Origin: Tepidisphaeraceae bacterium
GTDB lineage: Bacteria > Planctomycetota > Phycisphaerae > Tepidisphaerales > Tepidisphaeraceae
NCBI GenBank assembly: GCA_047600945.1
Contig: JASGKC010000001.1
Span: forward strand, 5,337,209-5,401,208
Length of the DNA: 64,000 nt
Reading direction: 5' to 3'
Shown here: one piece after another, positions 5,895 to 54,300 of the stretch
Position numbering within the stretch: the first letter of the stretch is position 1
Layout: every line of letters begins with the position of its first letter
The notes under the pieces: generated by a model
What the model saw: the letters and a program-made list of their open reading frames with translations, nothing else
The model's database searches: none
Told to the model about the DNA's origin: nothing
Position numbers and translations under genes: made by a program

Positions 5895-6899
5895 CTAGAC
5901 GTCCAGATACCAACGGCCAGCCCATATCCATAGAGGGATCGTCGCCATACCAATGATTGCGGTGCCCGCGACGACCCGGACGGCCGTCTCGGTGTCCTGC
6001 TTGTAGAGGCGCGTGACTACCACCGGGAACATCGCCGCGGGCATGGCGGCTTGCAGCATAATCACGCGTTTCAGCTCGACGCTCACGGGCATGTATCGCG
6101 CCAGTAGCAGGAACAGAACCGGCAGGATGCCCATGCGCAGCACACTGGCCGTGAACAGCGTGTTCAGGCCGTGATGCCATTTCATTGACCGCAACAGATC
6201 GAGCATCACCGCGCCGGTCACGAGCAGACCGACCGGAATCGCGCATCGGCCCAGGTCGGTCGTTGCCTTCGTGACGACATACGGCACGTACGCGTCGGCG
6301 CCCAGCATGTTGATCGCGACGGCGCACGCGATCGCGACGGCCGGCGGGTTGAACAGGTGCACCCACCACCCTTTCGCCAGCCCGCCCGAGATGATCACGA
6401 TGCCGACGGTCCACAGCGCGAACTCGACGCCGACGTTGTGCACCATCATCGTCGGCACCGTGCTGTCACGATTGCCTTGCGTCGTTGCAACCGTCGCCAG
6501 CAGCGTGGCGGCCGGGTAAAGCGCATCCGCCAGCGGCAACGGCAGGTAGCCGTAGTTGTACATGCCCGTGCAGAGCGTGAACGCGCTGCGGTGCTCGGGC
6601 GTGGGCAGCGCCACCGCACGCCGCAGCCCATACGCCACCACGCCTGCAAGGACGAAGCCGAGCACGGTCGTGCCGAAGCCGACCGAGACCGGTGCGACCA
6701 CATCGACGAAGTGCGTGTACTTCGGATCGCCGACGACTTTCGAGAAGAACAGACACGGGATGAGCAGGAACGCCACGAACTTCATGACCGACGCATCGGC
6801 CTCGGGCTTGAGCCAGCCGACCACGCGGAGCACCGCCCCCGCCGCCACGATCAGGTAAACGGCCAGCACTTCCTTCGCGACGATGACGAACTCAGACAT
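5895..6899 (-). CDS. AEC (auxin efflux carrier) family membrane transporter
   Basis: ~10 predicted TM segments; N-terminus MSEFVIVAKEVLAVYLIVAAGAVLR typical of the AEC/malonate transporter family. Confidence 0.65.
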   Translation of the reverse strand: MSEFVIVAKEVLAVYLIVAAGAVLRVVGWLKPEADASVMKFVAFLLIPCLFFSKVVGDPKYTHFVDVVAPVSVGFGTTVLGFVLAGVVAYGLRRAVALPTPEHRSAFTLCTGMYNYGYLPLPLADALYPAATLLATVATTQGNRDSTVPTMMVHNVGVEFALWTVGIVIISGGLAKGWWVHLFNPPAVAIACAVAINMLGADAYVPYVVTKATTDLGRCAIPVGLLVTGAVMLDLLRSMKWHHGLNTLFTASVLRMGILPVLFLLLARYMPVSVELKRVIMLQAAMPAAMFPVVVTRLYKQDTETAVRVVAGTAIIGMATIPLWIWAGRWYLDV

Positions 6900-6944: not shown

Positions 6945-7035
6945 AGGATCAGCACAGAGATCACAGAGGAAGAAGAGCACACTGGGCCAATTCTTTAAAG
7001 CGTCTTCCCCGTGCCCTCTGTGTCTCGGTGTTCTC
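6945..7035. repeat. MITE-like inverted-repeat element, copy 1 (CACAGAG arms)
   Basis: Left arm GATCAGCACAGAGATCACAGAGGAAGAAGAGCAC and right arm GTGCCCTCTGTGTCTCGGTGTTCTCGTG are reverse-complement related, with an AT-richer core; same arm family at 13147-13300 and 26995-27235. Confidence 0.45.
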
Positions 7036-7860
7036 GTGTTTGTTTTGGAGGCGCAGCGGGACCGCGACGGCATTCACTCAGACGTGTATGCTCCCCTCGT
7101 GGCGAAAACGTTCTGGAGCATGTACGCACTCGGCGAGGCCGGCCTGCCGACGTCGATCGAATCGGGCGGTCAGACCTGGGCGCTCGAAACCACCGTCAAG
7201 CACGACTTCTGGGCCGCCACCGGGTTCTACCGCTCGGCCTCGGGCGAGCGCGCGGTGGTGAAGATCAACCGCCAGAAAATGTTCGTCATCCTCCCGCTCC
7301 GCTGGATCGGCCGATGGCTCGGCAATCGCGAGATGCGGGCCTACCGCAAGCTCCAAGACCTGCCGAACATCCCGCGTCTGATCGGCCCCGCCACCGACAC
7401 CGGCTTCGCCCACAGCTTCATCGAGGGCGGCCCGCTCACCCGCGACAAAAAGCCGCCCGACGGTTTCTTCGACGAACTCCAGGCGCTCACCGACGAACTC
7501 AAGCGTCGCGGCATCGCGTACGTCGACTCAAACAAGCCGCAGAACATCCTCCTCGGCGACGACGGCAGGCCTTACCTGATCGACTTTCAGGTGAGTTGTG
7601 ACGCCTCGCAGTGGTGGCCGCCGGCACTGGGGCGATGGGTGCTGAACCTGATGTATCGAGGGGATGTCTACCACGTCGCCAAGAACAAACGCCGCTTCAG
7701 GCCCGATCTGCTGACGGACGCCGACAAAGCCATTCTTGCCCGCAAAGGCTTTCTGCACCGCCTGCACGGCATCGTGAGCTGGCCCTACCACGCGATCCGC
7801 AAGCCGACGATGAAATGGCTGGAGCGCAGCGGGCGGGTGATGCCGGAGAAGAGCAAGTGA
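7036..7860 (+). CDS. Protein kinase-like fold protein (RIO / lipopolysaccharide-kinase-like)
   Basis: VVKINRQK (Lys region), DSNKPQNILL catalytic-loop-like and YLIDFQVS (DFG-like) motifs; GTG start. Confidence 0.45.
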   Translation: MFVLEAQRDRDGIHSDVYAPLVAKTFWSMYALGEAGLPTSIESGGQTWALETTVKHDFWAATGFYRSASGERAVVKINRQKMFVILPLRWIGRWLGNREMRAYRKLQDLPNIPRLIGPATDTGFAHSFIEGGPLTRDKKPPDGFFDELQALTDELKRRGIAYVDSNKPQNILLGDDGRPYLIDFQVSCDASQWWPPALGRWVLNLMYRGDVYHVAKNKRRFRPDLLTDADKAILARKGFLHRLHGIVSWPYHAIRKPTMKWLERSGRVMPEKSK

Positions 7861-7994: not shown

Positions 7995-8999
7995 ATGAAC
8001 ATCCTCGTCGCCGGCGGCGCTGGTTACATCGGCTCGCACACCGTTCGTCAGCTCAAGCAGGCCGGGCACAATCCGATCGTGTTCGACAACTGCTCGCGCG
8101 GGCACGCGGTGATCACCGACATCCTCGATGTCGAATTCGTCCGCGGCGAACTCGACGACAAGGCCCTGCTCGTTGAAACCCTTCAGCAGCACCGCATCGA
8201 CGTCGTCATGCACTTCGCCGCGTACGCCTACGTGGGCGAGAGCGTCGAGAAGCCGCTGATGTACTACCACAACAACGTGGCCACCACGATCAACGTGCTG
8301 GAGGCGATGTCCGACGCGGGCGTGTCGCGGTTCGTGTTCTCCTCGACGTGCGCCACCTACGGCGACCCGGACGTCGTGCCGATCACCGAAAACGAGAAGA
8401 AGGCCCCGGTCAGCCCGTACGGCCGAAGCAAGTGGATGGTCGAGCAGATTCTCGATGACCACTGCAAGGCCAACAAGGACTTCTGCTACGCGGCCCTGCG
8501 CTACTTCAACGCCAGCGGATGTGCGGCCGACGGTCGGATCGGCGAAGACCACGACCCCGAATCGCATCTGATCCCGAACGTGCTGCTCGCGATCCTCGGG
8601 AAGAAGCCGGGCCTGACCGTCTTCGGCACCGACTACCCCACGCCCGACGGCACGAACGTCCGCGACTACATCCATGTGGAGGACCTCGCCGACGCGCACA
8701 TCAAGGCGGCCGAGAAGCTCGGCACGGGCTCGGGCCAGATGAAGCAGATCCTCGCGAACCTTGGCACGGGCATCGGCTTCAGCGTGAAGCAGATCATCGC
8801 GGCGGCGGAGAAGGTCACGGGCAAGAAAGTCCCCGTCACCTACGGCCCGCGCCGCGCGGGCGACGCGATCGCCCTCTACGCCAACCCGAAGTACGCCAAA
8901 GACGTGCTCGGCTGGGAAGCGAAGTACAAAGACCCCGAATCGATCATCCGCACCGCGTGGAGCTGGTTCCAGGCGCATCCGGACGGGTACAACGACTGA
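7995..8999 (+). CDS. galE: UDP-glucose 4-epimerase
   Basis: N-terminal Rossmann motif VAGGAGYIGSH, YxxxK active site region, length 334 aa typical of GalE. Confidence 0.9.
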   Translation: MNILVAGGAGYIGSHTVRQLKQAGHNPIVFDNCSRGHAVITDILDVEFVRGELDDKALLVETLQQHRIDVVMHFAAYAYVGESVEKPLMYYHNNVATTINVLEAMSDAGVSRFVFSSTCATYGDPDVVPITENEKKAPVSPYGRSKWMVEQILDDHCKANKDFCYAALRYFNASGCAADGRIGEDHDPESHLIPNVLLAILGKKPGLTVFGTDYPTPDGTNVRDYIHVEDLADAHIKAAEKLGTGSGQMKQILANLGTGIGFSVKQIIAAAEKVTGKKVPVTYGPRRAGDAIALYANPKYAKDVLGWEAKYKDPESIIRTAWSWFQAHPDGYND

Positions 9000-11905: not shown

Positions 11906-12010
11906 GCTGCCGAATGAACTCGCCGCGCAGTGTGACATGAGCGCCCGGCCGTTGAATACTTGTGCCCCGACAACGGCTGCCGCCTTGACCCCCGCCGACT
12001 CCGACCGACG

Positions 12011-13111
12011 ATGCCGATCATGTCGCCCGATCTCCGCCTGCTGCTCGAACTTACCGCCGTCCCGACCGCACCGTTTCATGAACACCGCGTGATGGCGTTC
12101 ATCGACGCCTTTGCACGAGTCCGACGCTCGCTGTCCATCTCCCGGGATCGCTTCGGGAACACGCTGCTCGTCCGAAAAGGCTCGGCCGGCGAGAAACGCC
12201 CGCGGCTGGTCTATGTGGCTCACCTCGACCACCCCGGCTTCATCGTCGCGGAACAACTCGACACGAAGACCATCCGTTGCGACTTCCACGGCGGTGTGCT
12301 CGCGAAGCTGATGCTCGGCGCGAAGGTGCGATTCTTCGATGGAGCGAACGAAGTCACCGGCAAAGTGATCGATGCGAAAGACGACGCCGGTCGGGCTTCG
12401 TCGGCGACCGTGCGCGTGAGCAAGCCTGTGAAACCGGGCGCGTTCGGCATGTTCGACCTGACACCCGGCAAAATCGTCGGCCAGCGGTTCCACGCCCGCG
12501 TGTGCGACGACCTGGCCGGCGCGGCGTCGGCGCTGGCGACGCTAGACGCGCTAGCGAAGTCGCCCGCCAAATGCGACGTGGCCACCCTGCTCACGCGCGG
12601 CGAGGAACAAGGCTTCATCGGCGCGATCGCCAGCGTGAACGCGAGGCCGTCGCTGCTCCGCAAGACCGATCGGCTCATCAGCATCGAGTGCAGCGCCGAG
12701 CAACCCGTCGCGAAACAGGGCGAAGGCGTCGTCCTCCGCGTGGGCGACCGCACCAGCACGTTCAACAGCGCCTTCACCCGCTTCATCGGCGACGTCGGGA
12801 CCGACCTGGCGCAGAAGGACAAGCGGTTCAAATTCCAACGCGCCCTCATGCCCGGCGGCACCTGCGAGGCAACCGTCTTCGACGCCTGGGGCTACACGAC
12901 GGCGGCTGCGTGCGTGCCGTTGGGCAACTATCACAACATGAACAAGGTGCGCGGGCGCATCGAGGCGGAGAACGTGCACCTGGGCGACTGGCAGAACATG
13001 GTAAAGCTGTTCTTGGGATTGGCCCGACGCATCCACGAATTCGACGGCTCGCACGCGGCGCTGCGCGATCGGCTGACGAAACGGTTCAAGTCGTTCGAGC
13101 AGCTGCTGTGA
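12011..13111 (+). CDS. M42 family metallopeptidase (glutamyl aminopeptidase / FrvX-like)
   Basis: FHEHRVMAFIDAF and VYVAHLDHPGFIV motifs typical of the M42/M20 aminopeptidase fold; start chosen at ATG 12011. Confidence 0.65.
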   Translation: MPIMSPDLRLLLELTAVPTAPFHEHRVMAFIDAFARVRRSLSISRDRFGNTLLVRKGSAGEKRPRLVYVAHLDHPGFIVAEQLDTKTIRCDFHGGVLAKLMLGAKVRFFDGANEVTGKVIDAKDDAGRASSATVRVSKPVKPGAFGMFDLTPGKIVGQRFHARVCDDLAGAASALATLDALAKSPAKCDVATLLTRGEEQGFIGAIASVNARPSLLRKTDRLISIECSAEQPVAKQGEGVVLRVGDRTSTFNSAFTRFIGDVGTDLAQKDKRFKFQRALMPGGTCEATVFDAWGYTTAAACVPLGNYHNMNKVRGRIEAENVHLGDWQNMVKLFLGLARRIHEFDGSHAALRDRLTKRFKSFEQLL

Positions 13112-13146
13112 TGAATGCGTTGTCAGGGCGGCTCCGAAAACAAGCA

Positions 13147-13300
13147 CGGAGCACACAGAGAGCACAGAGGTCCCAGAGAAGGGCAACAAAAAGAAGATCG
13201 GAACAGTCGAGACGCCTTCGAGTATTTTGGCTTAACGCTATCGTCTTCCCTCTTCCGTCTATTCCTCTGTGCTCTCCGTGCTCTCGGTGTCCTCTGTGAT
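13147..13300. repeat. MITE-like inverted-repeat element, copy 2 (CACAGAG arms)
   Basis: CACGGAGCACACAGAGAGCACAGAGGTCCCAGAGAAGGG ... CCCTCTTCCGTCTATTCCTCTGTGCTCTCCGTGCTCTCGGTGTCCTCTGTG; between convergent gene ends. Confidence 0.45.
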
Positions 13301-13408
13301 CATCTTCGCATCACAGCACCAGCGACTTCGTCGCAGCGTGGCGACTCACCAGTGATGCGTCTGCTTCGTCTTCAATCGCAAATCGCAAATTGAAAATCGC
13401 AAATCCGC

Positions 13409-13643: not shown

Positions 13644-15005
13644 ATGGCATCCGCACCGCTGCGTGGCGTTCACTTCGATCTCAAGGGAATGCCGCCGACG
13701 TTCGAACGATTGCTCGGCTGGATCGACCTGTGTGCCAGCCTCGGCTTTCAGTTCGTGCTGATGGAGTGGGAAGACGCGTTCCCGTGGACGCTCGACGCGG
13801 GCCTGCGGTGTGAAACCGCGTACTCTGCCGATCAGGTGCAGGCGATTCACGAACATTGCCGCGAGCGTGGCCTGCAAGTGATCCCGCTCGTGCAGAGCCT
13901 GGGGCATATGGAAACGCCGCTTTCACTCGATCGCTTCGCAAGCCTGCGCGAAATCCCGTATCGCTCCAGCGGCCTGAATCCGCTCGCGCCGGGCGCACGC
14001 GACCTCGTGCTGGCAATGGTCGACGAAGTGCTCGCAGCTTCGCCCGGCGTCACCCACTTTCACCTCGGCGGCGACGAGGCCTGGACGCTCGGCCAGCACC
14101 CTGACACGGCCGCTTTCGTGAAAACGCACGGCAAGGCGCAGCTTTACTGGCAGCACGTCGAACCGCTGCTGGACCACCTGCTCGCCCGCGGCGTGCGCCC
14201 GATCCTGTGGCACGACATGATGAGTTCGTGGGAGCCGGATTTGCTCGCGAAGCTCGCCGCGAAGGCGGACCTGATGTTCTGGGTGTACGAGCGCGACCCG
14301 CTGGGATCAACGGACGATCACTTCGGCAAGCCCGCGCTCGATCGCTTCCAGCAGGCGGACGTCACACTGTGGGGCGCGGGCTGCTTCCGCGGTGCGGGCG
14401 GGTCGGATCGCGACCTGCCGAATGGCGACGTGCTCGCGTCCAACGCGCTCGCGTGGACGCGCGTGGCGTCGCAGTACGACCTGCACGGCATCGTCGCGAC
14501 CGGCTGGGCCCGCTACGCGACGCATCAGTTGCAGTGTGAGCCGTTCGATGGGGCGATGGACTCGCTGGCGCGGGTTGCATCGATCCTGCGCGACAGCGTC
14601 GATTCGGGCGTCGATCGATCCATCGAACGGCTTTCCGAATTGGGCGAGCGCGAGCGGTTCATCGCCTGTCGGGACGCGCTACGCGAACTGAGCGTCGCTC
14701 GTGACGCCGGCTGGCGCTGGTTGCGGTCGTTGCATCAGTTGCTGGTAACGATGGCCGACGACCCACGGCGACGATCCGGCTGCGTGGAGATCGAGTACGC
14801 GAAGCTGACCCGGCAGGCGATCGCCCGCTGCGAGCGGGCCGGTGAGGCGATGGCCAAGGCGTTCGACGGTATGACCGATCCGATCTGGGTGAAGCGGTAT
14901 CTACACGAACGGATCGCACCGTTGAAAGAACAATTGGCGACGCTTCAGGAACGCGGTCGATCCATCAATCCGGATGCGTGGGACGACTTCGCGCGGACCG
15001 CATGA
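13644..15005 (+). CDS. Glycoside hydrolase family 20-like protein (beta-N-acetylhexosaminidase catalytic domain)
   Basis: TIM-barrel GH20-like motifs FHLGGDEAW and ILWHDM; N-terminal region with conserved R and W residues. Confidence 0.55.
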   Translation: MASAPLRGVHFDLKGMPPTFERLLGWIDLCASLGFQFVLMEWEDAFPWTLDAGLRCETAYSADQVQAIHEHCRERGLQVIPLVQSLGHMETPLSLDRFASLREIPYRSSGLNPLAPGARDLVLAMVDEVLAASPGVTHFHLGGDEAWTLGQHPDTAAFVKTHGKAQLYWQHVEPLLDHLLARGVRPILWHDMMSSWEPDLLAKLAAKADLMFWVYERDPLGSTDDHFGKPALDRFQQADVTLWGAGCFRGAGGSDRDLPNGDVLASNALAWTRVASQYDLHGIVATGWARYATHQLQCEPFDGAMDSLARVASILRDSVDSGVDRSIERLSELGERERFIACRDALRELSVARDAGWRWLRSLHQLLVTMADDPRRRSGCVEIEYAKLTRQAIARCERAGEAMAKAFDGMTDPIWVKRYLHERIAPLKEQLATLQERGRSINPDAWDDFARTA

Positions 15006-26568: not shown

Positions 26569-26964
26569 TCACGCCCCCAACCGCAGCAGTCGCAGACTGA
26601 GCAGCGCCAACGCCACACACCCGACATTGCTCGCTAGGACATAACTCGCCGCGGCCAGCAACCGTTTCTCTTCGATCAGGTTCGAAGTCTCCAGCGCGAA
26701 CGACGAGAACGTCGTGAAGCCGCCGAGCACGCCGACGATCAGCAGCGGCCGCAGCGTGCTCGCATGGCCGGGCCAGCGTTCGATGACCGCCGCCGTCAGC
26801 ACGCCGATCATCAGGCAGCCGACGAGGTTCACGACCAGCGTCGCCCACGGAAATGTGGTGTTCGGACCGAGCGTGCGCGCGAACAGCAGGTTCACCGCAA
26901 ACCGCAGCGAAGCCCCGAACGCGCCGCCAAAGGCAACGAGCAGAAACTGGTAGAGCGTGGTCAT
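26569..26964 (-). CDS. crcB: Fluoride ion channel CrcB/FluC
   Basis: ~130 aa, four TM helices, GGFGASLRF and GVLGGFTTFSSF signature motifs. Confidence 0.85.
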   Translation of the reverse strand: MTTLYQFLLVAFGGAFGASLRFAVNLLFARTLGPNTTFPWATLVVNLVGCLMIGVLTAAVIERWPGHASTLRPLLIVGVLGGFTTFSSFALETSNLIEEKRLLAAASYVLASNVGCVALALLSLRLLRLGA

Positions 26965-26994
26965 AGGATTGCGCAATCGGCCTGCATCTGATTC

Positions 26995-27235
26995 GAACCA
27001 CAAAGATCACGGAGCGCACAGAGTGCACAGAGAAGTCGACCCGGAATTTTTTTGAGTTCGGATTGAGCACCGAGTGCAGCCGGGTGCCACGGCATCGGTA
27101 CTCCGTTGCTGTGGGACGCTTGGTAGAGCAGAGCGTCCTGTTTTCCGCAAGCGTACCACGGCTAGCGAGTACGCAAGCCGTGGCACCCGAGCCTCCCTTC
27201 TTTCCTCTGTGTTCTCTGTGGCTCTGCGGTGACGA
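26995..27235. repeat. MITE-like inverted-repeat element, copy 3, with nested palindromic GGGTGCCACGG element (27100-27200)
   Basis: Outer arms GATCACGGAGCGCACAGAGTGCACAGAGAAG / CTTCTTTCCTCTGTGTTCTCTGTGGCTCTGCGGTG; inner element with termini GGTGCCACGG...CCGTGGCACCC. Confidence 0.45.
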
Positions 27236-27240
27236 GAGCC

Positions 27241-28412
27241 TCACTGCCGGAGGTGGTAGCTCTTGATCATCGTCTGCTGGAAGTCCGGGTAGGCGTTGAT
27301 GTCGTGACGGGACAGATCGAGGCCCTCGTATTCATCGTCTTCGTCTTCGCGGAGCTTATTGATTGATTTGAGCGCCAGGCAGATCGCCACGACGCCGACT
27401 GTCATCACGACGGCCGTGCCGAGCATCAGGCCGATGATCTTGCCGGCCAGCAATGCGTTCTCGCCGCGCGTGATCGACACGAACATCAGGATGAGGATCG
27501 CCACGAACGCCATGCCCAGTGGCGACACCAGACCGCCGGGGTCGTCGATGCGGTAGCGCAGGTCGATCTGCACGCTGAACCATGGTGTCAGAACGCCGAG
27601 CACGGCGCCGACGACGATCGCCAGCCACGGCGCGAACGACCCGCCCGCCACCGCGCCCGCCAGCGCACCGGCCAGCGCGGCCGCGCTGCACAGCAGCACG
27701 TCGACCTTGCCGAAGCGAAGCCCCGTCCACACCGCCGCCGCGCAGATAGCGGCCGACGATCCGAGCAGCACGCCGGCGATCGGCTTATCGCCCGACATGC
27801 CCATCGCCGCCGGAAGCAGCAGCGCCAGCACCAGCGTGCCGAGCAATTGGAGTGTCAGGTTGTGGCCTGGCAGGATGTTGGCCGAGCCGTCGCGGTTGTA
27901 CTTGCCCTGCCGCGCGCCCAACACAAGGGCCGCCCCCGCGCCGGCGAGCGACGACGCCAGCACCGGCGCCATCGCCAGGCCGACGAAGTGCGCCTCGATC
28001 GAAAACGCCATCCGCTGCCCCGCCGCCGCGATGATGCCGACGAAGCCGGCGATGACCATCTGCGCACGAGCTTCGCCCGCTCGTACATCGCGCCGGTAAC
28101 GACGATCACCGACGTCCACGCGATGACCAGCAGCGACGGCAGCAGGAACGCGACGTCGATCTTCATGCTCTGGCCGAGCTCGTTGGAAGCGCCCAGCCAC
28201 ACCACGTGGGCTGCACCGTACGCCGTCAGTGCTGCAACAGCCGATTCGATGATCGACCGCCCCACCGTGGTGGCGGCCGACCGGGCGCGGACCGAACCGG
28301 CGCTGTGCAACAGCAAACCCGCGCGAAGCAGAATGAGCACGAGCAAACTGACGATCGTCGACATGACGGGCATTATCGGCGTCGCGACCGACTTTTCGAG
28401 CCGCCGCGTCAC
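27241..28412 (-). CDS. amt: Ammonium transporter (Amt family), reading frame interrupted by an apparent -1 shift near 28070-28095
   Basis: N-terminal frame (ORF 27855-28412) ends ...TGAMYERAKL at the GAxAER motif; C-terminal frame continues MVIAGFVGII... to RIDDPGG and EGLDLSRHDINAY (Amt C-terminal signatures). Confidence 0.7.
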
Positions 28413-28507
28413 AGCATTCCGGGCGATCGGTCGATACCATCGGACGCCGATCAGACGCCCGTGGTACGGCGTCGCGCAGTTGGGCTTCGGTATCGGAAAC
28501 AGCAGGC

Positions 28508-29353
28508 ATGATTCGGCGGCTTCAGGGTGGTCAGTTCTGGCTCTTCACGCAGGCCGAGCAAGCGCGCGTGGCGGCCGAACTCGCGCGACATCTGGACACG
28601 GCGTCTGCTCGTCTGGTCGGGCCGTCGCGGAAAGATGCGTTGGTCGCCGCGCTGGCCGTACACGAGGCCGGTTGGACGCCGATCGACGCGAATCCGCCGC
28701 TGAGTCCGCAGCGCTATCCGCTCGACGCGCTCGAAGCGCACTGGTCGCTCACGTTCAACGCGTGGGGCACGACGACCGACGAGGCGCTGAAGCTGAACGA
28801 CGACTACGTCGCCCTGCTCGTCAGCGTACACGGGTTGCAATTGTCGTACGACGCCGGCCGACCCACCGAGCGGGCCAGCCGGTTCGATCCGCACGAGATG
28901 CGAAAGCATTTCATGGCCAACAAGTTTCAGCACCGACAGATCGAGATTCAGGAAGAGCTGCGGCCGCGGCTGGGCATGGCAATCGACGAGCCGCGCCGGC
29001 TGGGCATCGCGGTCGATCTGATCAACGACGGGAAGGAACGCACATTCAGCAACGACTACCGCTGGATGCAGGCGCTCGATCTGATGAGCCTAAGCTTGCT
29101 GGCGACCGACGTGGTGGCCGCCCCGCTGGGGCCGATTTACTCGCTCGAAGGGCAACTCGAGACGCTCCGCGTGTCGCGTGTGGACGCCAGCACGATGACG
29201 GTGTCTCCCTGGCCGTTCGCGGGCAAGTCGATCCGGATCGCCACCGAATACCGCGAATACCCGGCCGCTCCAACGCGCAGTCAGCCGGAGTTCCAGCACG
29301 CGTACGCCGGGCTCGATCCGCGTAAACTCGAACTGCTCGTGCGGCCGCTATAG
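28508..29353 (+). CDS. Hypothetical protein (possibly DUF3891-like)
   Basis: Protein-like 281-aa ORF beginning MIRRLQGGQFWLF..; no confident family assignment. Confidence 0.45.
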   Translation: MIRRLQGGQFWLFTQAEQARVAAELARHLDTASARLVGPSRKDALVAALAVHEAGWTPIDANPPLSPQRYPLDALEAHWSLTFNAWGTTTDEALKLNDDYVALLVSVHGLQLSYDAGRPTERASRFDPHEMRKHFMANKFQHRQIEIQEELRPRLGMAIDEPRRLGIAVDLINDGKERTFSNDYRWMQALDLMSLSLLATDVVAAPLGPIYSLEGQLETLRVSRVDASTMTVSPWPFAGKSIRIATEYREYPAAPTRSQPEFQHAYAGLDPRKLELLVRPL

Positions 29354-30421: not shown

Positions 30422-30439
30422 CCCCGCGTCGGCGACTTG

Positions 30440-30570
30440 CAACGAATCTGGGTGCCACGGCTTGCGTACTCGCTAGCCGTGGAACGCTTGGCTACGCCAT
30501 CCGGCACTCATCTCTTGCTCGCACACCACAGCAACGGCGTACCGATGCCGTGGCACCCAGACTTGTTGCT
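30440..30570. repeat. Palindromic GGGTGCCACGG element, copy B (inverse orientation relative to 27100-27200)
   Basis: GGTGCCACGGCTTGCGTACTCGCTAGCCGTGG...GTACCGATGCCGTGGCACCC; each half is the reverse complement of the opposite half of the 27100-27200 copy. Confidence 0.45.
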
Positions 30571-30986
30571 CAATCGCCCTTCGACGCCACCTCCAACTTG
30601 CTGACGAGCGTTCGCAGCATGTCGGCGATGCTGAAGCTCCCCGCTCCTTCGCCAACGCCGTCGAGCGTGCGTGTCGCCAAGGCGGGACCGTAGGTGTGGA
30701 TCACCGTTGCCAGCAGTTTTCCGGCGGGCGTAACGGGGTGCATGTCGCCGTAACCGACATTAAGCGATGTCGCGCAGTACAGCAGGCAGTCCGGCAACGT
30801 AGCCATCTTCGGGTTGTGGTGCTTCTCGAAGTGGTGCATGAGCATGGCCCCGGCAATGACGACGGTCGCCGCACTGGTGGCCGGCCGCTGCGCGAGGCCG
30901 TGGAGCGCCGCGTCGAGATCGAATCGCTCGGGAATCTGAATCCCGAACGCCGCCAGGCCGTAGTTGAGGTCGGAGCGGGTGAGCAT
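30570..30986 (-). CDS. Ion-channel pore-domain protein (potassium channel-like)
   Basis: Selectivity-filter-like TSLNVGYGD flanked by hydrophobic helices. Confidence 0.5.
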   Translation of the reverse strand: MLTRSDLNYGLAAFGIQIPERFDLDAALHGLAQRPATSAATVVIAGAMLMHHFEKHHNPKMATLPDCLLYCATSLNVGYGDMHPVTPAGKLLATVIHTYGPALATRTLDGVGEGAGSFSIADMLRTLVSKLEVASKGD

Positions 30987-31096
30987 GTGAAATCTCTCCA
31001 GAGCTATCCACGAAGGTCACGAAGGGACACGAAAAAAGTCCAATTCACTCCGTGGCCTTCGTGCCCTTCGTGGACAACCATCAGCGGCTAGCGCAA

Positions 31097-32905: not shown

Positions 32906-33100
32906 AGTTCTGTTTGATGGGGCCTTTCGTCCCCGGGTTGTTTCGTTTCAAAGCCGTCCACGAAGGAACACGAAGCCGATGCATCGAGTCGCTGCTATCG
33001 TCTGCATTCCGTCATGCGAGCGAAGCGAGGCATCTGGCGCCTTTCGATCGTCGCGCAACTTCGCCTGGCGCCAGATCCTTCGCTGCGCTCAGGATGACGT

Positions 33101-34030
33101 TCACTCAAGGCGTTCCTCCCTACATGACCTCTTCGTGCCCCTTCGTGTCCTTCGTAGACACCTCACGGCGGCGCAGACCTTCCCGACCTGCGCCGCGTGT
33201 TTCGCGGCCTGTTTCGCGTCGCCGCCACGCTGCGCCAGACGCCCGGGCGTGGTGACGAAGAAGTGGTTGTCGCGTCGGTCGTATCGCATCAGCTTCACGG
33301 TTTCGTTCGACGCGATCGGGTCTTCGCCGGGCGACGTGCGTACCGGCACCTGGATCGCGATGTGCGTCTGCGGATCGGTCACACGGGCGAGGCCAAATCG
33401 GTCGTTCACCGGCAGGATCGCGACGGCGTCCATGCCCACGTACTGCCACATCCGCTTGGCGCTGCTGCCCGAGCCTTTCGGGATTAGTCTTGACGCAACC
33501 GCGCCGAGCAGCGACGTCACCATCAGCGCGCTCACGCCCGCGATCGGCGCAGACCATTTCACCGCGCTCATGCCCACGCGCGGCGATGCGGTTTCCGCCA
33601 TCCACTGATTCGCGAAGAACCCGGCCAGGCCCCACGTGAGCAGCAGGCCGCCAACGAACACCGTCATTGGCAGCCGGCCGAAGCCGAGCAGACTCAGCAG
33701 CGAGAAACCGTGGCCGACGGACGCCTCGCCGTGGGCCGTGTCATGGTCGTGGTCGACCGCGTGGTCACCGTCGATGTGGTGATCGACCTCGTGATCGGTG
33801 TCCAGGTCATGATCCGCGTCGACATCGTGATCCACGTCGTGGTCGGCCTCCACGGACGGAGCGAGATCGGCTTCCGTCTCCACATCCGAGTCGACGTCGT
33901 GATCTGCGTCGGCGTCGGCATCCGCGTCGGAGCCGAAGTCGATGCCCGTGGCGACGTACAACGTCAGGTACAACAGCGCCAGCCCGAGCGGCAGAAGATA
34001 GATGAGGTTCCACCAGGCGAGCCAAGTCAT
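33101..34030 (-). CDS. NfeD/YqiJ-like membrane protein with Asp/His-rich acidic repeat
   Basis: Upstream partner of flotillin (same strand); N-terminal TMs, DADADADADHDVDSDV...HDVDHDVDADHDLDTDHEVDHHIDGDHAVDHDHD low-complexity insert, C-terminal NfeD-like beta region. Confidence 0.5.
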   Translation of the reverse strand: MTWLAWWNLIYLLPLGLALLYLTLYVATGIDFGSDADADADADHDVDSDVETEADLAPSVEADHDVDHDVDADHDLDTDHEVDHHIDGDHAVDHDHDTAHGEASVGHGFSLLSLLGFGRLPMTVFVGGLLLTWGLAGFFANQWMAETASPRVGMSAVKWSAPIAGVSALMVTSLLGAVASRLIPKGSGSSAKRMWQYVGMDAVAILPVNDRFGLARVTDPQTHIAIQVPVRTSPGEDPIASNETVKLMRYDRRDNHFFVTTPGRLAQRGGDAKQAAKHAAQVGKVCAAVRCLRRTRRGTKRSCREERLE

Positions 34031-54199: not shown

Positions 54200-54300
54200 T
54201 CGCTTGATTTCGAATTGCGACATGCGAATTTCGAATTGAGTTCGCAGACGCATCGCTCGTTCCTCAATTCGCAATTCGAAATCCGCAATTCGCAATGCCC
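54190..54300. repeat. AT-rich tandem/inverted repeat island (TTCGAATT / AATTCGCAAT units); probable terminator
   Basis: CGAATTTCGAATTGAG...CTCAATTCGCAATTCGAAATCCGCAATTCGCAAT; related AATCGCAAAT units at 13355-13400. Confidence 0.4.

Follow-up and report, generated by a model that had tools for sequence, protein, structure and literature searches.

Several intergenic inverted repeats with arms built on the heptamer CACAGAG occur in the 64,000-nucleotide stretch of Tepidisphaeraceae DNA analysed here as a whole (the window; G+C 65%), which raises the question of what kind of element they are. An initial annotation had described three of them as MITE-like, and all three were recovered where it had placed them, so that the observation itself is confirmed. 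Our data suggest that they are probably gene-less miniature members of a widespread foldback family, the full-length form of which carries a GxxExxY gene between its arms.

The heptamer CACAGAG occurs 12 times in the window, compared to a mean of 6.8 after shuffling, and 12 was reached in 2 of 100 shuffles. The raw count alone is therefore insufficient, and it is the clustering of the matches that carries the argument. Eleven of the twelve lie inside the three elements, which occupy about 470 of the 64,000 bases, and they fall without exception on the plus strand in the left arm and on the minus strand in the right arm; by a binomial estimate this confinement cannot be chance. The twelfth (44609) is a lone match within coding sequence. 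The arms had been called rich in CACAGAG, and while the motif stands they are in fact tandem arrays with a 9-bp period, which Tandem Repeats Finder reported at 13143-13169, 13265-13289 and 27008-27032. A looser unit, C-R-C-N-R-A-G, taken from the variation in foreign loci and used to rescan the window, revealed two further elements with CACGAAG units that had been overlooked, giving a total of five in 64 kb. The features, none of which is assigned to a strand, are as follows:

Copy 1 (6945..7040, no strand): degenerate element of the CACAGAG type, with a 47-bp core and a purine-rich tract.
Copy 1, left array (6953-6968): two units, starting at 6953 and 6962.
Copy 1, right array (7016-7039): CTCTGTG, CTCGGTG and a degenerate CTCGTGT, starting at 7016, 7024 and 7033.
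Copy 2 (13135..13308, no strand): CACAGAG type, with an 86-bp core and arms of four units each, the period being exactly 9 bp.
Copy 2, left array (13145-13178): CACGGAG, CACAGAG, CACAGAG and CCCAGAG, starting at 13145, 13154, 13163 and 13172.
Copy 2, right array (13265-13298): CTCTGTG, CTCCGTG, CTCGGTG and CTCTGTG, starting at 13265, 13274, 13283 and 13292.
Copy 3 (26995..27232, no strand): CACAGAG type, with a 172-bp core.
Copy 3, left array (26999-27032): CACAAAG, CACGGAG, CACAGAG and CACAGAG, starting at 26999, 27008, 27017 and 27026.
Copy 3, right array (27205-27228): CTCTGTG, CTCTGTG and CTCTGCG, starting at 27205, 27214 and 27222.
Nested element in the core of copy 3 (27060..27190, no strand): belongs to another palindromic repeat that is unrelated to the heptamer arrays (GGGTGCCACGGC ... 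GCCGTGGCACCC).
Element 4 (31006..31076, no strand): sister CACGAAG type, with a left array (31009-31034), a 13-nt loop and a right array (31048-31072).
Element 5 (32955..33160, no strand): sister CACGAAG type, with a left array (32959-32975) and a right array (33131-33156).

All five consist of two inverted arrays, each of at least two C-R-C-N-R-A-G units at a period of 8-10 bp. Copy 1 lies, as had been described, between divergent genes (a Mem_trans gene at 5895-6899 on the minus strand and an ORF at 7036-7860 on the plus strand). The arms of copy 2 are 44 nt long and 75% complementary in a repeat search, and this copy begins 24 bp past the stop of an M42 peptidase gene (11960-13111, plus strand); it had been placed between convergent gene ends, but the next gene, a GH20 gene (13644-15005), is on the plus strand as well. 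Copy 3 takes up the gap that separates an Amt-like gene (27241-28509, minus strand) from crcB (26569-26967, minus strand). Its position upstream of crcB, in what had been termed the crcB leader, thus holds, but a riboswitch link does not: no match to the fluoride riboswitch RF01734 was found at 26900-27300 at the gathering score or at E<=10, and the only Rfam matches to the crcB spacer at E<=10 were sub-threshold generic hairpins (miRNA precursors). The nested palindrome that had been noticed in copy 3 is real (42 nt, 27081-27189 in the repeat search), and the repeat to which it belongs is also found free-standing at 30430-30575. Element 4 is located between the stop of a flotillin gene (31097) and the next minus-strand gene, and element 5 between a YqiJ-like gene and flotillin, so that flotillin has an element on both sides. 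The core of element 5 contains another nested palindrome (33011-33098), and the YqiJ-like ORF, which is approximately 21 codons longer than that of its closest homolog, terminates inside this element. No GxxExxY gene or remnant was detected in the 64-kb window, either by tblastn or by hmmsearch of the six-frame cores.

Further copies with the arm motif, for which a search had been suggested, are present in at least nine phyla, and the arms are conserved across these phyla, so that the condition named for refuting the observation, a lack of both, clearly fails. A family scan with one genome per species, in which three spaced units were required, returned at least 120 loci; the matches listed come from Acidobacteriota, Planctomycetota, beta-, gamma- and delta-Proteobacteria, SAR324, Chloroflexota, Bacteroidota, Gemmatimonadota, Spirochaetota and Negativicutes, at a GC content of 0.37-0.74. 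The carriers include the isolates Iodobacter arcticus and Shewanella metallivivens, cultured Bacteroides, and complete chromosomes. Among the matches listed, 49 clean elements show plus-strand units followed by minus-strand units, with the reverse order in 2 loci, and units are spaced by 9 bp in 182 of about 217 intervals. The fourth position of the unit is A in 65-76% and G in 17-30% of these matches, the spacers are purine-rich on the heptamer strand, the outer consensus reads A-rich...TT[A/C][A/G]C-CACAGAG, and the flanking sequence is A-rich on the left side and T-rich on the right. The family form can thus be given as 2-4 heptamers per array with the consensus CACAGAG, an 8-9 bp period and outer caps resembling TTCAC...GTGAA. 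In miniature elements the arrays stand 9 to ~300 bp apart and the cores are mutually unrelated. The array layout of the window elements fits that of the 165 non-redundant elements collected from other genomes. The inner tracts of copies 1-3 are purine-rich, and the outer caps agree only in part with the family consensus (ATCAG-C in copy 1, ACAAG-C in copy 2 and GAAC-C in copy 3). Some beta-proteobacterial members are flanked by an A-run and a T-run.

Intergenic placement, as initially proposed, is the rule across the family, and most elements closely follow a gene. On the basis of crude ORF calls, the gene context among the matches listed was co-directional for 28, convergent for 12 and divergent for 5, and elements often begin 3-35 bp past a stop codon. 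Two near-identical copies occur on one contig (L004), clusters of alternating orientation were seen at three loci (L127, L144 and L198) and in Shewanella (L105), and tandem clusters of up to five or more hairpins lie beside GxxExxY genes and in Shewanella. Conservation of a 7-nt unit over at least nine phyla is unusual, as REP and MITE families are normally lineage-specific. Mimicry of the Shine-Dalgarno or anti-Shine-Dalgarno sequence was considered as the cause of this conservation (CACGGAGGA contains GGAGG) but is not supported as a general explanation, the commonest base at position 4 being A. At the gathering score, an Rfam search of the window and six foreign loci returned only tRNAs. 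A full-text literature search found no account of the repeat or of its link to GxxExxY; the sole match to a sequence string was a Bacteroides fragilis primer that ends in CTCTGTGTTCTCTGTGGTG by coincidence.

The gene-carrying form of the family came to light in a locus (L119) whose core is a broken GxxExxY gene (TIGR04256, E 1e-8; PF13366, E 5e-8). Used as a protein query, this fragment recovered only short remnants (26-78 aa), and in three further loci (L123, L124 and L125) the remnant ORF lies exactly between the left CACAGAG and the right CTCTGTG arrays. A full-length GxxExxY gene starts right behind an array in another (L058). We then turned to metagenomes for a sample of 80 GxxExxY genes of full length; 73 of them have one or more arrays next to them, and 43 have the canonical pair, with one array upstream and an inverted array downstream. 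The 80 loci contain 234 arrays, compared to none after shuffling. A count made without any pattern, within 80 nt of the gene ends, placed CACGGAG, CGCAGAG and CACAGAG among the top 7-mers together with TCACCAC, the first three each in 14-20 of 79 loci over a background of 0.5-0.9 per 10 kb. The association of GxxExxY with the arrays is thus well supported. In the full-length form the core gene has about 125 codons and encodes a GxxExxY protein (Pfam PDDEXK_3), the cores measure 374-430 bp and each arm has three 9-bp units. In Bacteroides finegoldii, radA, an array, GxxExxY, a second array and the next gene follow one another on one strand, and the layout in the cultured Bernardetia is similar. 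In a close relative of the window organism (L206), a complete cassette separates nuoD from nuoE (8331-8821). The unit variants (CACAGAG/CACGGAG, CGCAGAG, CACGAAG and CGCGAAG) group with clades of the protein, so that the arm type follows the protein and gene and arms are therefore inherited together. Counting against the GxxExxY reading, heptamer arrays at one locus (L118) flank a different ORF of 411 aa.

The cassettes are also placed in a consistent way relative to their neighbours. The upstream gene is co-oriented with GxxExxY in 58 of 65 cassettes (p 4e-11), with a median gap of 60 bp, and the downstream gene in 36 of 47. Co-orientation together with the short gap indicates that cassettes sit inside host transcription units, where hardly any space is left for a separate promoter. 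Such placement agrees with a selfish gene expressed by read-through from the host gene; an RNA-level role for the arms is possible as well.

The miniature forms are best read as non-autonomous relatives of these cassettes. Gene-carrying relatives and internally deleted intermediates both exist, and the relation of the gene-carrying to the gene-less form would then resemble that of a parent element to its MITE. A link between the two forms is supported by the deleted-intermediate lineage, which recurs in different genomes, by one MAG in which two copies of the same shortened element lie on different contigs, and by the hairpin clusters beside GxxExxY genes together with the tandem array of elements in Shewanella. 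Counting against an origin by deletion, a GxxExxY remnant was detectable in only 4 of 122 miniature elements, the other 118 being gene-less. Most miniature elements could for this reason be an independent hairpin module that was invaded by the gene rather than deletion products.

Related genomes also differ in whether an intergenic site is occupied. Empty sites had been proposed as something to look for in related strains, and they were found in relatives that are more distant than strains (75-86% protein identity). The spacer between YqiJ and flotillin, which in the window contains the 205-bp element 5, has no element in three relatives (L206, L207/L208 and L209), where it measures 86, 57 and 27 bp and flotillin is 86%, 78% and 75% identical, respectively. 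The spacer between flotillin and the Ion_trans gene, occupied in the window by element 4, has no element in L206 and L207, and contains a different element of the CACGAAG type in L209. These empty sites may reflect loss by deletion in the relatives rather than insertion in the window.

The GxxExxY proteins match Pfam PF13366 (PDDEXK_3), a member of the PD-(D/E)XK nuclease superfamily, and residues D67, E77 and K79 of the D...ExK catalytic motif, as well as E27, are invariant in 14 diverse sequences. A 2012 survey of PD-(D/E)XK proteins gave the function of PDDEXK_3 as unknown and noted 'multiple transfers'. GxxExxY proteins are very numerous: they form 34,444 clusters at 50% identity, and a single query recovers over 7,900 of the 90%-identity clusters at E<=1e-10. 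An AlphaFold model of moderate confidence (pLDDT 74) gave no significant match to the PDB by Foldseek (best E 0.09), and no solved structure was matched by a sequence profile. Searches against PADLOC gave only weak Cas4-like matches and those against PHROGs none.

Whether the arms are conserved as a paired stem or as a repeated motif can be judged from how they vary. In 52 cassettes the arms match at 82% of aligned positions, and the differences comprise 154 transversions and wobble-type mismatches that number 64 on the sense and 57 on the antisense strand (p 0.59). There was hence no excess of G·U on the cassette sense strand, and no sign of strand-specific RNA pairing. Over 135 arm pairs, spacer complementarity was 0.36-0.42 compared to 0.35 expected from composition, while the fourth position of the unit matched between arms at 0.57 compared to 0.45 expected. 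As the spacers do not compensate and no strand bias in G·U is seen, recognition of the heptamers is favoured over selection for a continuous stem. This points to each heptamer, rather than a continuous helix, as the conserved entity, and to a protein that recognizes the repeat.

We infer that the GxxExxY protein, a putative nuclease, recognizes the arrays and drives their spread. In such a mechanism the nuclease, or a partner, would use the heptamer arrays as cis sites, and the protein would initiate recombination by which the unit is copied or relocated. The five elements of the window would then be non-autonomous relatives or decayed remnants, in the way that REPINs relate to RAYTs or MITEs to insertion sequences, and in host transcripts they would form interrupted hairpins acting at most as generic 3'-end or processing structures. 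That arrays and GxxExxY together constitute a new class of selfish element, REPIN-RAYT-like and spread over many phyla, with a minimal PD-(D/E)XK nuclease that recognizes tandem heptamers, is a broader proposal that we put forward tentatively and with somewhat less than even confidence.

The strongest competing explanation is that the elements are RNA hairpins of use to the host (3'-end stabilizers, RNase III sites or bidirectional terminators) with GxxExxY as a passenger, which we consider unlikely although deserving of attention. The placement just after genes, the A-rich left and T-rich right flanks, the co-orientation of cassettes with the upstream gene and the scarcity of gene remnants in miniature elements are all in its favour, as is the intervening sequence of Coxiella 23S rRNA, which has a similar 28-bp stem and is cut by RNase III (PMC4990558). 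Four of the five window elements (copies 2 and 3, elements 4 and 5) also fold much better than shuffled sequence, the z-score being -3.5 for copy 2, -5.4 and -6.4 for element 4, and within this range (-3.5 to -6.4) for copy 3. However, the predicted fold of copy 1 is no better than that of shuffles (z -0.8 and -1.75), and none of the five window elements fits the pattern of an intrinsic terminator (a G+C-rich stem, a 3-8-nt loop and a T-run). The chance-level spacer complementarity and the lack of G·U bias described above mean that a continuous stem is not conserved, a generic need for hairpins leaves an identical heptamer in at least nine phyla unexplained, and the arm type tracks the protein clade of the enclosed gene.

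The arrays might otherwise be sites for a conserved host DNA-binding protein, regulatory or nucleoid-associated, with the palindrome arising from cooperative binding and not from mobility. Conserved heptamers among freely varying spacers and cores would be expected of such sites, and copy 1 lies between divergent gene starts, but we regard this explanation as improbable. The neighbouring genes have no common function, sites between divergent genes are under-represented (5 of 45 among the matches listed), the distance between arrays varies from 9 to ~300 bp, and hairpins occur in the tandem clusters already described. Relatives also differ, as described above, in whether an element is present at the same intergenic site.

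That the elements are classical MITEs, i.e., deletion derivatives of insertion sequences mobilized in trans by a transposase of the DDE or IS200/IS605 type, is more improbable still. The likeness on which the initial annotation rested is genuine to the extent that the elements are short, dispersed, gene-less and intergenic, have inverted ends and vary in presence between relatives, with several copies per 64 kb and two near-identical copies on the L004 contig. The partners and the target sites that had been suggested are a different matter. Across the 165 elements, no consistent target-site duplication, TA or TTAA was found when compared to shuffled pairings of left and right flanks; a slight excess of 5-10 bp direct repeats was present at the flanks, and several of these stem from tandem copies. 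Many copies may be too old to have kept a duplication. No transposase or other gene family recurred within 3 kb of 55 elements, and the gene found between the arms is GxxExxY and not a known transposase, be it IS200/IS605 TnpA or IS630/Tc1. With neither a target-site duplication nor a transposase, the insertion-sequence partners proposed are unsupported. The cores, moreover, are wholly different between copies, unlike those of a typical MITE family.

Finally, a chance low-complexity similarity or an assembly or adapter artefact has next to no probability, for although the CACAGAG total is only modestly above that of shuffles, and copy 1 contains GAAGAGCACAC and copy 2 AGATCGGAA, which occur in Illumina adapter sequences, both adapter contamination and chance are refuted by the packing of 11 of 12 matches into about 470 bp with strict strand order and 9-bp phasing, by the absence of arrays in shuffled loci and by the same layout in genomes of isolates and in complete chromosomes that many laboratories have sequenced.

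The proposed class of selfish element, if real, would account both for an intergenic repeat that crosses phyla and for the function of one of the largest uncharacterized families of bacterial proteins. Tying GxxExxY to a specific DNA motif that brackets it makes ideas on that function testable. The elements also matter for annotation: they lengthen or shorten ORFs, as with the YqiJ-like gene here, they lie within operons, as shown by the cassettes that part nuoD from nuoE in L206 and follow radA in Bacteroides, and they are open to confusion with riboswitch leaders or terminators.

When compared with known systems, the heptamer-array elements corresponded to no Rfam family in the searches described, and those of the window fall outside the definitions of terminators and, for copy 3, of the fluoride riboswitch. 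Integron cassettes with attC sites are similar in having promoter-less ORFs co-oriented with upstream transcription, and in being bounded by imperfect palindromes with conserved ends and a variable centre, but here there is no integrase and no R/L box consensus, the units are dispersed, and the palindrome encloses the gene instead of following it. Free-standing homing endonuclease genes of the PD-(D/E)XK type (I-Ssp6803I) share with GxxExxY a tiny selfish nuclease gene, the same fold superfamily and spread between genomes, but an intron or intein context is absent here and repeat arrays flank the gene. The foldback (FB) transposons of eukaryotes have long inverted arms of tandem short repeats, a variable middle and coding capacity only in some copies; they are of kilobase scale, and their proteins differ from GxxExxY. 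Resemblance to MITEs lies in the gene-less structure, inverted ends, small size and insertion near gene ends, and in the internally deleted intermediates (L119, L123 and L124) that lead to a gene-carrying form. The window elements accordingly have the inverted ends, small size and non-coding nature of MITEs, but neither a fixed target-site duplication nor ends shared with an insertion sequence were detected; the family differs further in having no associated DDE transposase, in its unrelated cores and in ends made of repeat arrays.

REP/REPIN-RAYT systems similarly consist of short intergenic palindromes, located mostly in co-directional or convergent gene gaps and often clustered in alternating orientation, with a small cognate gene that is flanked by its own repeats and vastly outnumbered by them. 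GxxExxY genes are usually multi-copy per genome, whereas RAYTs are single-copy. The gene here belongs to PF13366 with a PD-(D/E)XK fold, whereas RAYT is an HUH Y1 transposase. A REP is a single palindrome of 20-40 bp with an unpaired GTAG or CGTC tag (PMC3733652), whereas the arms here are tandem heptamer arrays and their consensus contains neither tag; the window elements thus have neither a tagged palindrome nor an HUH Y1 gene. The heptamer is also conserved across phyla, in contrast to the lineage-specific REPs. The intervening sequences of 23S rRNA that carry an S23p (four-helix-bundle) ORF, in Coxiella and Leptospira, likewise have a stem-enclosed ORF, a similar size and a sporadic distribution suggesting horizontal transfer; that of Coxiella measures 428-444 nt, with a 28-bp terminal inverted-repeat stem around an ORF of unknown function (PMC4990558). 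They differ in lying inside rRNA helices, in being excised by RNase III and in an ORF of family PF05635 instead of PF13366. No PF05635 gene was found by tblastn in 1.4 Mb of loci with an approximate consensus query, and the likeness therefore remains an analogy. Taken as analogies, REP/REPIN-RAYT would be the closest system in function and the ORF-carrying 23S rRNA intervening sequence the closest in architecture.

The initial annotation counted three foldback elements in the 64 kb, a figure which stands for those built of CACAGAG units but leaves out two elements of a sister type, built of CACGAAG units, that lie around the flotillin gene:

31006-31076, element 4, foldback with CACGAAG units, on one side of the flotillin gene
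32955-33160, element 5, foldback with CACGAAG units, on the other side of the flotillin gene

Upstream of crcB, repeat elements take up the entire 273-bp spacer (26968-27240), and crcB is therefore probably either co-transcribed with the Amt-like gene or served by a promoter located within the repeats. No fluoride riboswitch was detectable for crcB in the same interval. The palindrome that had been described as nested in the third CACAGAG element (copy 3) was borne out; it belongs to a second palindromic repeat of ~130 bp, GATTGAGCA...GGGTGCCACGGC...GCCGTGGCACCC, which is unrelated to the heptamer foldbacks and occurs twice in the window:

27060-27190, second palindromic repeat, nested inside the core of copy 3
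30430-30575, second palindromic repeat, free-standing

Because of this nesting, copy 3 is a composite of two repeat families. The second repeat had no copies among the 209 foreign loci searched.

The right arm of element 5 contains the end of the YqiJ-like reading frame, which runs for ~38 codons beyond the last residue alignable to its closest homolog (33101-33217), where the homolog has 17. Since the frame terminates within this arm, element 5 appears to supply a C-terminus and a stop codon in place of the gene's original ones. The core of element 5 also holds a palindrome, and two further repeats were found elsewhere in the window:

33011-33098, palindrome nested within the element 5 core, GTCATGCGAGCGAAGCGAGGCATCTGGCGCC ... 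GGCGCCAGATCCTTCGCTGCGCTCAGGATGAC
54205-54297, small foldback immediately 3' of a stop codon, with arms of GCGAATT / AATTCGC heptamers, TTTCGAATTGCGACATGCGAATTTCGAATTGA ... TCAATTCGCAATTCGAAATCCGCAATTCGCAAT
13374-13405, solo tandem array of the unit AATCGCA (x 4.6), lying ~65 bp downstream of copy 2, the second CACAGAG element

The palindrome in element 5 is similar to a 'GTCATCCTGAGCGAAGCGAAGGATC' palindrome, common in soil bacteria and a source of spurious '...SLRMT' ORFs; an exact search of the foreign loci with one version of it gave no match. The foldback at 54205-54297 shares the style of architecture of the CACAGAG elements, with a different unit.

In the foreign loci, which carry their own numbering, the repeats also form clusters. 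One intergenic region of Shewanella metallivivens (L105, 4990-6120) is filled by about nine tandem copies of a ~145-150 bp unit, each containing one complete CACAGAG-type foldback, and comparable runs of 3-5 miniature hairpins flank the GxxExxY genes (the usual core of full-length elements) in L127, L144 and L198. Two copies of a truncated GxxExxY element in one MAG (JAJFFH01; L119, 4305-4640, and L123, 1450-1830) share homology beyond the arrays for ~25 nt leftward and ~50-90 nt rightward, and the repeated unit in this lineage is larger than the hairpin. In a Pirellulales MAG (L118, 80-1580) the same heptamer arrays bracket a 411-aa ORF that replaces GxxExxY, so cargo other than GxxExxY is possible; this ORF has no Pfam match, and its start codon follows the last unit by 11 nt, an arrangement shared with the GxxExxY cassettes. 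Among the matches listed, many GxxExxY relatives with top scores measure 240-295 aa and match in two stretches; each is either a tandem double-domain protein or a fusion of neighboring cassettes by read-through.

The published promoter primers for Bacteroides fragilis BF2782 terminate in AACTCTGTGTTCTCTGTGGTG (PMC3090145), which is the right arm of a member of the heptamer-array foldback family just upstream of BF2782. The element passed without comment in that study (PMC3090145), and the heptamer-array foldback occurs in a well-studied gut species.
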